NCBI GenBank assembly: GCA_035576605.1 | Contig: DATLWF010000598.1 | Location: 1-57,044 of the forward strand | DNA length: 57,044 nucleotides | Origin: Blastocatellia bacterium | GTDB lineage: Bacteria; Acidobacteriota; Blastocatellia; UBA7656 | Direction of reading: 5' to 3' | Shown: one piece after another, positions 40,956 to 53,724 of the stretch | How positions within the stretch are numbered: position 1 is the stretch's first letter | How the letters are laid out: each line of letters opens with the position of its first letter | Notes under the pieces: model-generated | The model's input: only the letters and a program-made list of their open reading frames with translations | Told to the model about the DNA's origin: nothing | Database searches by the model: none | Program-made: the position numbers and the translations under genes

Positions 40956-41975
40956 TCAGTTGAGGAATCGGGACTCCAGACGGACGTACGCACGAAGCTC
41001 AGCCATTATCTCCGCGAACATCGGAGGCGTTAGCGATTGCGGGCCGTCCGACCAAGCCTCCTGCGGGCGAGGGTGAACTTCGATGATCAAGCCATCGGCG
41101 CCGATCGCTACAGCCGCCTTTGCGGCAGGACGAACCAGGCTCCTGCGGCCGGTGGCATGGGAGGGATCGACAATCACCGGCAGATGACTCAACTCGTTCA
41201 ACAACGGGACGGCTGCAAGGTCCAACGTGTTGCGGGTGGCAGTCTCGAAGGTTCGAATGCCTCGCTCACAAAGGATTATTTGATCGTTTCCGTGTGATGC
41301 GATGTATTCGGCTGACAGGAGCAGCTCCTTTATCGTCGAGCTCATCCCCCGCTTGAGCAGCACCGGACGTTTGACGCTGCCAAGCCGCTTCAGGAGCGCG
41401 AAGTTCTGCATGTTGCGTGCGCCAACCTGAAGTATGTCTGCGTACTCGGCGACTACCTCGGTGTCTTCGGTTGTCACGACTTCGGTTACGATTTTGAGCC
41501 CGGTCTGAGCGCGCGCTTCGGCCAGCAGCTTGAGTCCTTCCACTTCGAGACCCTGAAAGTCATAAGGCGAGGTGCGCGGTTTGTAAGCGCCGCCTCGCAG
41601 TACCTGCGCGCCGGCAAGCTTGACTGCTTCAGCCGTCTCCATCAACTGCTCGCGCGTCTCGACCGAGCAGGGCCCGGCCATCACGATGAACTCCTTGCCG
41701 CCGATTTCGAGATCCCCAACGCGCACGATTGTGCGTTGAGGCTGCAACTCACGGCCAACGATTTTGTAAGGCTGCAAGATTGGCACGACGTCTTCGACGC
41801 CCGGCACCGAGCGCAGGTTTTGCAAATGGTCTTTGTTGTCTCCGTGCCCGACTGCGCCAATTACCACGCGCTCTTCGCCTCGTATCACGTGCGGTTTGTA
41901 GCCGTACCGGCGTATGCTCTCACAGACTTCTTCGATTTGTTCTTCGGTTGCGCTTGATTTCATTGCGATGATCAT
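40956..41975 (-). CDS. aroF: 3-deoxy-7-phosphoheptulonate (DAHP) synthase, type I-beta with N-terminal ferredoxin-like regulatory domain
   Basis: The 339-aa ORF has a GGAGAG RBS. Signatures are [45 protein letters not shown] and [12 protein letters not shown]. Confidence 0.94.
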
Positions 41976-41988
41976 TGTTTTCTCTCCA

Positions 41989-42093
41989 TCTGAAATCTTG
42001 AATCTGAAATCTTGAATCTGAAATCTGCGATCTGCAATCTGAGATCTGAAATCTGAAATCTGAGATCTGAGATCTGCAATCTGAGATCTGAAA
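41989..42093. repeat. 15 x 7-bp perfect-register tandem array (TCTGAAA consensus) in the pheA-aroF intergenic region
   Basis: The units are tctgaaa tcttgaa tctgaaa tcttgaa tctgaaa tctgcga tctgcaa tctgaga tctgaaa tctgaaa tctgaga tctgaga tctgcaa tctgaga tctgaaa, with no indels. It ends 13 nt from the aroF start codon. Confidence 0.9.
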
Positions 42094-42112
42094 TGCCCTG
42101 CTGGGCCCTCTC

Positions 42113-42154
42113 ACGTTTTACGTTTCACGCATCACTCGTCACGCATCACTTCTC
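42113..42154. repeat. second heptamer array (ACGYNTC-like, 6 units) overlapping the 3' end of pheA
   Basis: The units are acgtttt acgtttc acgcatc actcgtc acgcatc acttctc. The pheA stop codon (42139-42141) lies inside unit 4/5. Confidence 0.5.
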
Positions 42155-43005
42155 CAGTAGCTCCCCAGCACTCGGACGCTCTCAGCGAGCTCCGAAAGGT
42201 TCGCGAGCGCTCGCTCGACGTGGGGCTCGTGCTGATCGCCGATCAGGTCGAGATAGAACGAGTACTCCCACGGGCGGCCCTCGATGGGACGCGATTCGAT
42301 CTTGGTCAGATCAATGTCGCGCAGCGCGAACGCAGCAAGCGAGCGGAACAGGCCGCCGGGCTTGTTCGCTACCCGAAAGACAATGGATGTCTTCCGCTGG
42401 GCCTCGTTCGAAGTCGTTCTGATGGAAGCCGCGCGGTCCGGCCGGGCGAGCAGAAGGAATCTGGTGAAATTCTGGACGTTGTCTTCGATGCTTTCCGCGA
42501 TGATTTCTGCGCCGTAGACCGCGGCGGCGGTCGCGCCGGCGATTGCCGCGTCCTCCCCGGAGTTGCTCTCGACTATCATCTTGACGCTGCCGGCAGTGTC
42601 GTAAGCGGGCGCGACCTCGATTTGCCGATTGGCACGCAGAAACCGTTCGCACTGTGCGAGCGCGACCGGATGGGAGTGGACGCGACGGACATCGGTGAGG
42701 GCTACGCCGCGGGGCGCGATTAGATGATGCACGATTCTTACGTTCGTTTCGCCGATGATCGTAAGCTCGTGCTCCATCAGCAGATCGTAGTTCTTATGCA
42801 CCGAACCGGCGAGGCTGTTCTCGATCGGAGCTGCCGCGGCATCCGCCGCGCCGGTTGACACCGCCTCAAACATCTCCTCGAAGGTCCGACAGGGAATTGT
42901 TTCGACACTGGAACCGAGGAGTTGTCGCGCAGCGTCTTCGCTGAAAGCTCCGCGTTCGCCTTGGAAGGCGACCGTAGCTGTATTCTCCGGCTTTGTGTGT
43001 TCCAT
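42139..43005 (-). CDS. pheA: prephenate dehydratase (PDT + ACT domains)
   Basis: This is track ORF 42139..43017. ATG 43005 follows GGAGAAG. Signatures are VAFQGERGAFSE, ENSLAGSV, NFTRFLLL (TRF motif) and TKIESRP (ESRP motif). Confidence 0.93.
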   Translation of the reverse strand: MEHTKPENTATVAFQGERGAFSEDAARQLLGSSVETIPCRTFEEMFEAVSTGAADAAAAPIENSLAGSVHKNYDLLMEHELTIIGETNVRIVHHLIAPRGVALTDVRRVHSHPVALAQCERFLRANRQIEVAPAYDTAGSVKMIVESNSGEDAAIAGATAAAVYGAEIIAESIEDNVQNFTRFLLLARPDRAASIRTTSNEAQRKTSIVFRVANKPGGLFRSLAAFALRDIDLTKIESRPIEGRPWEYSFYLDLIGDQHEPHVERALANLSELAESVRVLGSYWRSDA

Positions 43006-43015
43006 CAACTTCTCC

Positions 43016-43056
43016 AAAAACTTTAAAGCCCGCTGCCTTCGTCGGAAGGAGCGGGC
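43016..43056 (-). terminator. attenuator terminator immediately upstream of pheA
   Basis: The minus strand reads GCCCGCTCCTTCCGACGAAGGCAGCGGGC (43028-43056 rc). This gives a 12-bp stem with one bulged C and a CGAC loop. It is followed by TTTAAAGTTTTT, which runs into the pheA RBS. Confidence 0.6.
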
Positions 43057-49220: not shown

Positions 49221-49318
49221 CTTTGCGTCTTTGCGAGACTTTGCGTCTTTGCGCGAAACTTGCTTTCTCGAAAGAGCCCGTTTCGCGCAAAGACGCAAAG
49301 TTCCGCAAAGACGCAAAG
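49221..49318. repeat. 39-bp-arm palindrome built from CTTTGCG repeats, filling the peptidase-gntR gap
   Basis: CTTTGCGTCTTTGCGAGACTTTGCGTCTTTGCGCGAAAC (49221-49259) pairs with GTTTCGCGCAAAGACGCAAAGTTCCGCAAAGACGCAAAG (49280-49318). There are 2 mismatches and a 20-nt loop. Confidence 0.8.
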
Positions 49319-49323
49319 ACACT

Positions 49324-53532: not shown

Positions 53533-53620
53533 CCGCGTTCCTCCCGAAGAGATGCCTCGTGCTGCGTGGAGCAAGAGTATAACCGTGGCGCACTTTGTGT
53601 GGAAGCGCGATAGTGACGGA

Positions 53621-53724
53621 TTTTCTATTTTCTATTTTCTATTTGTCATTATTTGTCATTTGTCATGGATTAGGAGCTTCCCTATACAATGACAAATAGA
53701 AAATAGAAAATAGAAAATAGAAAA
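53621..53724. repeat. inverted repeat whose arms are heptamer tandem arrays (TTTTCTA x3 + TTTGTCA ... TGACAAA + TAGAAAA x4)
   Basis: 53621-53665 reads ttttcta ttttcta ttttcta tttgtca tta tttgtca tttgtca. 53690-53724 reads tgacaaa tagaaaa tagaaaa tagaaaa tagaaaa. It lies in the divergent glgC/psuG promoter region. Confidence 0.85.

Follow-up and report, generated by a model that had tools for sequence, protein, structure and literature searches.

A run of 105 bases with unbroken seven-base periodicity lies between the prephenate dehydratase (pheA) and DAHP synthase (aroF) genes of a Blastocatellia bacterium, at positions 41989-42093 of the window (i.e., the whole analyzed stretch of 57,044 nucleotides, contig C598 of its assembly). 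It is best explained, with a probability that we place at about 0.6, as a hypervariable, slippage-driven heptamer satellite, which would form an unstructured A/U-rich stretch of the pheA-aroF mRNA, lengthening the spacer and leaving the ribosome-binding site intact. The array is one of about 1000 in its genome and its unit number changes between near-identical strains, which argues for fast-evolving repeat DNA rather than for a dedicated aroF switch. More specifically, it appears to be a solo member of a genome- and clade-wide STRR-like satellite that fills the intergenic spacers of this lineage.

The array and its setting between pheA and aroF

The source genome (G000) comprises 7.24 Mb in 820 contigs with 56.8% G+C, and the best protein relatives of its DAHP synthase come from Acidobacteriota/Terriglobia MAGs. 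Tandem Repeats Finder (TRF) calls the array at 41988-42094 with a period of 7, 15.3 copies and a score of 130, and a reading of the + strand resolves it into 15 units, namely six TCTGAAA, four TCTGAGA, two TCTGCAA, two TCTTGAA and one TCTGCGA. All units share TCT at positions 1-3 and A at position 7, and all but the two TCTTGAA units have G at position 4, in full agreement with the first-pass annotation, which had described 15 in-register heptamers over 105 bp with these constant and variable positions. A two-unit pattern allowing at most two mismatches matches the window 14 times, 13 of them within the array, against an expectation of 0.36 in shuffled sequence, and the array is far richer in A/T than the genome around it. 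On the transcribed (-) strand it reads as TTTCAGA-type units, the last of which ends 13 nt before the aroF ATG. This 13-nt stretch, TGGAGAGAAAACA (41976..41988, - strand), contains the Shine-Dalgarno sequence GGAGAG, as had been correctly noted at the outset, and is kept in every allele seen.

The entire spacer measures 163 nt, the remainder being taken up by a short non-repeat linker (42094..42110, - strand) and a second heptamer array of the CGTGANN/TCACGNN family (42111..42149, - strand; TRF rows 42111-42129 and 42125-42149), which overruns the pheA stop codon into the last codons of that gene. At this second site congeners carry the CGTGANN family either as direct arrays or as full hairpins, and one close relative (L213) has three additional units. 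The identities that the first-pass annotation gave to the flanking genes are right. The upstream gene (42139..43017, - strand) codes for a pheA-type prephenate dehydratase with PDT and ACT domains (NCBIfam NF008865, 244.5 bits, above the cut-off), for which the Pfam PDT and ACT models were matched on the identical neighbor gene of the related contig L216. The downstream gene (40956..41975, - strand) codes for an aroF-type DAHP (3-deoxy-7-phosphoheptulonate) synthase with an FXD N-terminal domain (NCBIfam NF006421, 510 bits; Pfam DAHP_snth_FXD and DAHP_synth_1). The array had also been taken to be non-coding, on the ground that no open reading frame uses it. The ground is mistaken, as mechanically called ORFs do cross it (e.g., 41920-42114 on the - strand, 64 aa), but the conclusion survives: alleles at the site differ by 7, 14, 28 and 43 nt, and hence no reading frame is conserved. 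A coding repeat was rejected because these differences are not multiples of 3, the crossing ORFs notwithstanding.

The spacer is also devoid of the signals for which it was searched. An Rfam search of it returned no family at E <= 1, neither a sigma-70-like promoter nor an intrinsic terminator is predicted in 41800-42300, and the RNA fold of the spacer is no better than that of shuffled sequences (z = +0.51). A structured RNA, riboswitch, attenuator, promoter or terminator was rejected on these results. The earlier placement of the array within an apparent pheA-aroF transcription unit is borne out by a spacer without predicted promoter or terminator, and the suggestion that it might be an unstructured spacer fits the fold. 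Phase-variable contingency loci carry their repeat within an ORF or between promoter elements; the array here is intercistronic. Likewise, its immediate neighbors are the PDT and DAHP synthase genes, and no PF05635 match, the mark of the gene cassettes discussed below, occurs on the contig.

A REP/REPIN-RAYT system was rejected as well: the Y1 transposase (PF01797) genes of the genome are not array-flanked (seven of the eight have no heptamer array nearby), their hairpins belong to a different family, and the array folds no better than shuffles. The only PF01797 match with arrays in its vicinity is weak and marks a Y1 transposase-like remnant interrupted by an internal stop codon (C47:3588-4493), flanked by TTCAGAG and TGAACTC arrays.

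Strain-level variation and turnover among relatives

Other assemblies with the site were recovered by way of the identical AroF protein (four contigs; JGI, ENA and Logan), and two more relatives (L213 and L214) by an exact-word search of metagenome contigs. The closest of these, L217, with 99.9% identical DNA and an identical AroF protein, has the 15-unit arrangement. Three further contigs with the identical AroF protein (L215 and L216, 98.8% identical outside gaps, and L218, 99.4%) have a 9-unit allele, which, compared with G000, lacks one four-unit block and one two-unit block and contains one 6-nt unit (a 1-nt difference). Farther away, the 14 units of L213 (94% identical) are arranged differently, with (TCTGCGA TCTGAAA) x3 among them, and L214 (91-95% identical) has about 10 units, split by an insert into ~6 and 3-4. 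Not one of the six near-conspecific assemblies covering the site lacks the array, and the four that span it have 9-15 units. As for the sequences around it, the linker between the two arrays is kept in L213-L216 apart from point changes, the 13-nt stretch is present in L213-L218, and the Shine-Dalgarno sequence and ATG are unchanged in all alleles seen. As the changes mostly involve whole units or blocks, they bear the signature of slipped-strand mispairing, the mechanism that we infer. The strain comparison covered this array and one further locus, 53620-53724, where a hairpin of 3-4 units has the same unit number, with one substitution, in a ~99% identical strain; three further look-ups yielded no identical protein. 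The first-pass annotation had proposed a comparison of unit number among strains and had considered that the array might prove unique to the locus and invariant in copy number; it is neither, with 15, 14, ~10, 9 and 2 units in the strains and relatives compared.

The insert that splits the array in L214 (1022-1248; Ga0137359_10000382) is 225 bp long, with terminal inverted repeats and the core CCCCCAACTTCAGTTGGGGG. Its ends match G000 sequences that flank two adjacent Y1 transposase genes on another contig (C301, 12123-12168 and 13108-13150), and this resemblance suggests a putative REPIN/RAYT-like system distinct from the heptamer arrays.

The wider relatives present a picture of rapid turnover. 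The pairing of pheA with aroF holds across the whole family, and orthologous spacers were extracted from its genomes (28 in all, and 14 from congeners). Several are minimal, at 5, 11, 11, 13 and 16 nt, with four more minimal ones within the genus, and the remainder are occupied by quite different repeats, among them ATTGAAA arrays, (AAAACTG)5 and hairpins of the GTGATGC/TCACGCA, AGTTCGT, CCCCAGT-type and period-8 CTTTGCG kinds. The TTTCAGA array is absent from 12 of the 14 congeners. The nearest species-level genome (G004), 84% identical over the region, retains just the final two units (TTCAAGA TTTCAGA) beside this ribosome-binding site (one substitution in the 13-nt stretch), and an unrelated ATTTTCY/ATTTGTC hairpin at the position of the array. 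The series at the site thus runs 15, 14, ~10, 9, 2 and 0 units. This turnover indicates that the TTTCAGA array is confined to this species lineage and that the family does not need it to express aroF.

Taken together, these observations are consistent with a simple scenario. Within this species lineage, a short TTCAAGA-TTTCAGA tract beside the aroF ribosome-binding site would have expanded to 9-15 units, with whole units and blocks still being gained and lost, most likely by slipped-strand mispairing during replication or repair. The seed could have been a chance proto-repeat, or else a relic arm of a hairpin or of a PF05635 cassette with the TCTGAAA unit. The array is probably co-transcribed in the pheA-aroF mRNA, and its growth would have left the Shine-Dalgarno sequence and start codon untouched. 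Its main effect would be to extend the intercistronic spacer from ~10-20 nt to ~160 nt, and we propose that this uncouples the two cistrons. On the whole, the array appears to be tolerated, probably as neutral DNA, rather than required, and it would not be a dedicated regulator of aroF. The natural series of 0, 2, 9, ~10, 14 and 15 units in a housekeeping operon makes both the dynamics of slippage and the effects on translation directly testable.

The same data bear on the proposal that the array is a cis element tuning aroF. In such a role, the unstructured A/U-rich leader would serve as a ribosome standby or S1 site or offer RNase E-type sites, with the unit number setting translation or cistron stability as a putative "tuning knob". 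Its position directly against the Shine-Dalgarno sequence, its lack of structure and its A/T-richness in a 56.8% G+C genome would all suit this role, as would its length polymorphism among strains and its persistence in every near-conspecific assembly; further, a translational role has been proposed for the TAACTGA heptamers of Beggiatoaceae (PMC4679880). Nevertheless, we consider it unlikely: most congeners lack the array and several relatives make do with spacers of 5-16 nt, changes in unit number do not alter the geometry of the Shine-Dalgarno sequence and ATG, and aroF, as a housekeeping gene, is an atypical target of phase variation. Nor do the arrays show a genome-wide preference for strand or context, and those of the TCTGAAA family take either orientation where they occupy other operon spacers. 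A locus-specific aroF regulator or contingency switch, as had been entertained in the first-pass annotation, is improbable in light of these short or unrelated spacers in relatives, the use of both orientations and the distribution of arrays in proportion to spacer types. Against our preferred account of a slippage-driven satellite, we count that the retention of the array in six near-conspecific assemblies could mean that it is maintained.

Heptamer arrays across the genome and their possible link to PF05635 genes

A genome-wide survey, of the kind that the first-pass annotation had proposed, was positive. Across the genome TRF lists 809 period-7 rows, with 457 more at period 14 and 244 at period 21; periods 6 and 8, by comparison, have just 18 and 65. 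Merging of the period-7 family gives 992 arrays, which span ~50 kb and fall into 95 canonical units, TCTGAAA being the eighth in abundance. Intergenic DNA holds 633 period-7 arrays, as opposed to none after a dinucleotide-type shuffle, and the array between pheA and aroF, with its 15.3 copies, is near the 95th percentile of array length. With gene boundaries from a crude custom codon-usage gene caller (5737 genes, 86% coding), 627 of the 809 arrays have a coding share below 20%. Co-directional, convergent and divergent spacers hold arrays in proportion to the numbers of such spacers, and the orientation relative to transcription is evenly split (203 sense and 206 antisense), i.e., there is no strand bias. 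Solo arrays of the TCTGAAA family also occupy other short operon spacers in both orientations. The density, ~112 arrays per Mb, far exceeds the 13-20 per Mb at comparable loci of other Acidobacteriota and of other phyla. Arrays lie less than 200 bp from a contig end 71 times, where 37 are expected genome-wide, which suggests that they tend to break assemblies. Separately, three independent contigs (L217, L218 and L222) were seen to begin inside an array, which for L217 and L218 is the one between pheA and aroF.

Beyond this genome, a pattern of three TCTGAAA units with up to two mismatches is present in 19 of the 24 other genomes from its own family and in all three genomes from one further family of the class, but in none of five from the sister family within the order; a reversed-pattern control gave essentially zero matches. 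The flanks of 56 arrays of the TCTGAAA family share nothing, which indicates that they are not copies of a conventional MITE, and a MITE or other mobile element with conserved ends was rejected for want of any common flanking sequence.

Roughly a third of the arrays (197 of 627) are paired with an inverted array of the same unit family no more than 400 bp away, with a median loop of 34 nt. The polarity of these pairs is almost fixed for each family (e.g., 26 to 1 in AAAATAG, 16 to 0 in ACGGACT), and arms are somewhat more complementary to their own partners than to arms from other loci (0.835 versus 0.764, p = 0.006). No reverse-strand match to the array under study occurs in the whole 57-kb window, and an inverted partner enclosing aroF was thereby rejected. 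The fixed polarity of the inverted pairs, together with the recurrence of TCTGAAA in most genomes of the family (19 of 24) and in another family of the class, is not predicted by random slippage alone, and we count it against the interpretation of the array as a slippage-driven satellite.

The inverted architecture takes several forms in the genome. In the window itself, a period-8 family of inverted arrays (CTTTGCGT/CGCAAAGA) at 49221-49320 has a hairpin architecture like that of the heptamers, and the same family fills the pheA-aroF spacer in several other genera (L110-L114 and L132). A composite hairpin with outer TTTTCTA and inner TTTGTCA units is found at 53620-53724 (L221 and L222), in the divergent glgC/psuG region, and its design recurs at many loci (e.g., C128, C151, C240 and C249) as well as in the pheA-aroF spacer of G004. 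On another contig (C163:23708-24140; L219), the gene for ribosomal protein S21 (PF01165, E = 1.7e-20) sits between inverted arrays of the ACGGACT family, so that a housekeeping gene is here enclosed like a cassette.

These pairs raise the prospect that the array acts, or once acted, at the level of DNA, either as a putative nucleoid-protein site, a bent or flexible tract or a pause site of replication or transcription, or as the inactive relic arm of an excised hairpin or cassette. The absence of strand bias would suit a feature of double-stranded DNA. The frequency of pairing and the greater complementarity of own partners mean that solo arrays could be decayed pairs, and an unrelated hairpin is indeed inserted at the same spot in G004. 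Still, judging from sequence, such a role or origin seems very improbable to us: the window contains no inverted partner, the interior of the putative element would fall on the aroF ribosome-binding site, and a 7-bp period, being out of phase with the helix, would not be expected to produce a planar bend.

A different kind of partner is suggested by a gene on another contig. At C440:6100-7120 (L220 and L006), a gene with a PF05635 domain lies between inverted arrays of the very unit found between pheA and aroF (TCAGATT x17 and GAAATCT x29). We take PF05635 to be the 23S rRNA intervening sequence (IVS; S23p) protein, an Avd-like four-helix bundle. In this copy a 13-bp tandem duplication near the 5' end splits the reading frame. 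Heptamer arrays also adjoin four of the five other PF05635 genes of the genome. For 65 distinct PF05635 genes, drawn from 41 genomes across the class, arrays within 350 bp were scored: a short-period array lies beside 62 of them, at a median gap of 13-15 nt, and 37 have arrays on both sides, with units that are reverse complements in 29 of these. The arms have periods of 7, 8 or 9; examples with 8- and 9-nt arms are seen at L166, L169, L171, L172 and L154. Orthologues of the C440 protein keep TYTSARA-type arms down to 52% identity across two families of the class, whereas its paralogues at 31-46% identity have other arm units. More generally, arm units at most one base apart occur in 2% of gene pairs with less than 35% protein identity, a figure that rises to 71% at 70-90% identity. 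Finally, genomes with a C440-type orthologue contain 226, 87, 82, 52, 29, 27, 12, 10 and 1 TCTGAAA arrays, as opposed to a median of 0-1 in those without one.

These associations suggest a broader conjecture, which we regard as improbable though by no means negligible: the 7-, 8- and 9-mer arrays might be the cognate nucleic-acid partners of PF05635 proteins, each subfamily having its own unit, and the gene-less hairpins and solo arrays might be dispersed copies or trans targets. Applied to the spacer between pheA and aroF, the array would be a binding platform or dispersed "offspring" of the cognate protein, with the C440-type protein propagating or maintaining TYTSARA arrays or using them in trans. 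The enclosure of the C440 gene by 17 and 29 copies of this unit, the flanking of nearly all sampled genes, the retention of TYTSARA arms among orthologues of at least 52% identity, the fall of arm similarity along with protein identity and the surplus of TCTGAAA arrays in genomes with the orthologue all speak in its favor, as does the polarity of gene-less inverted pairs, which is that of the cassettes. On the other side, simple co-inheritance already predicts that arms and genes co-vary, the genomes compared are related and are not independent data points, and the C440 gene itself is interrupted. Moreover, the dependence of an array family on a cognate orthologue is supported for TCTGAAA but not cleanly for AAGGCAG, the unit of the C770 protein, as three congeners without a close orthologue (G011, G012 and G008) have 680, 221 and 180 matches, respectively. 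The two commonest units of the source genome, AAAATAG and ACGGACT, match no cassette arm among the 65 sampled genes. Thus, we see this application to the array as a tentative possibility at most, and the link between repeats and PF05635 as a lead rather than an explanation of the array. That the array shares its unit with the cassette arms hints at a sequence-specific partner and is counted against its reading as a satellite spread by slippage. The shared arm unit and the tracking of protein divergence by arm sequence nonetheless make this a concrete and testable lead on the relationship of such repeats with PF05635 proteins.

Parallels with known repeat systems

Cyanobacteria have been known to carry heptanucleotide arrays since 1990, and such arrays were later found in Xanthomonas, Geobacter, Beggiatoaceae and Chloroflexus, the last of which has (GATAGRA)n. 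No paper linking Acidobacteria with heptanucleotide repeats was found in the literature searched, and the ~1000 arrays reported here, making up roughly 5% of intergenic DNA, extend these arrays to soil Acidobacteriota. As relayed by later papers, heptanucleotides are the most abundant long simple repeats in many bacteria, and polymerase slippage in a 7-nt register has been proposed as their source (Mrazek et al., 2007, via PMC4679880 and PMC4692102). The period-8 and period-9 families described above share the architecture of the heptamers, and a fixed 7-nt footprint of the polymerase therefore does not explain them.

Among the closest counterparts are the cyanobacterial STRR and the heptanucleotide LSSR. 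To the extent that these later papers describe them, they too comprise head-to-tail 7-mers in many dispersed and mainly intergenic arrays of several families, with lengths that vary between close relatives, and STRR, like the arrays of this genome, have no known function. The array between pheA and aroF displays the repetition beyond chance, dispersed families and length variation that characterize the LSSR/STRR type in the broad sense, and the STRR analogy drawn in the first-pass annotation holds in these respects. It falls outside STRR in the strict cyanobacterial sense, which implies the canonical units and a heterocystous host: here the host is an acidobacterium, the units are not CCCCAGT, TTGGTCA or CAACAGT, and there are ~112 arrays per Mb, about one-third of them in inverted pairs of fixed polarity, some of which enclose PF05635 genes.

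The TAACTGA repeats of Beggiatoaceae, Cyanobacteria and Bacteroidetes, which in Beggiatoaceae were proposed to be translational elements directly upstream of start codons, are likewise intergenic, often end a few nucleotides before a start codon, contain a CTGA core and have a patchy spread (PMC4679880). They differ in having a strong forward bias and 2-6 copies (PMC4679880), in contrast to the even split (203 versus 206), many families and long arrays seen here; genome-wide, our arrays do not show the forward bias upstream of start codons that defines the TAACTGA type (MacGregor, 2015). The GGGAATC arrays of Xanthomonas and Nostoc also vary in length between close relatives, but they are G-rich and quadruplex-forming (PMC4692102), whereas the TTTCAGA unit has no G-run. 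The "global regulator sites" of Geobacter metallireducens are multicopy intergenic tandem heptamers, often in opposite-strand pairs at variable distance, and their class 3 consensus, MTYCTGA, has a CTGA core in common with TCTGAAA (PMC2700814). Those sites have 3-5 units, while arrays here reach 30 and the one between pheA and aroF has no partner; the regulator role of the Geobacter sites was itself a proposal without a test (PMC2700814).

The contingency loci of Haemophilus, Neisseria and Moraxella resemble this array in being slippage-prone tracts of the 5' UTR or intergenic DNA that vary in length between strains (PMC12721329); they are unlike it in that here neither promoter spacing nor a reading frame is affected, a housekeeping enzyme lies downstream, and hundreds of similar arrays have no functional theme. 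The closest published counterpart of the PF05635 cassettes is the 23S rRNA IVS of Coxiella burnetii, in which an S23p ORF is accompanied by a 28-bp stem and by GACAGAT heptamers that vary in number between strains (PMC4990558). The C440 locus echoes it, with a PF05635 gene inside a stem of terminal inverted repeats built of TCTGAAA arms, whereas the array between pheA and aroF has neither gene nor partner and lies in an mRNA spacer rather than in rRNA; processing by RNase III is not expected of such a single-stranded array. Should the association of heptamer arms with PF05635 proteins prove to be functional, STRR-type repeats, rRNA intervening sequences and Avd-like proteins would be joined in one system.
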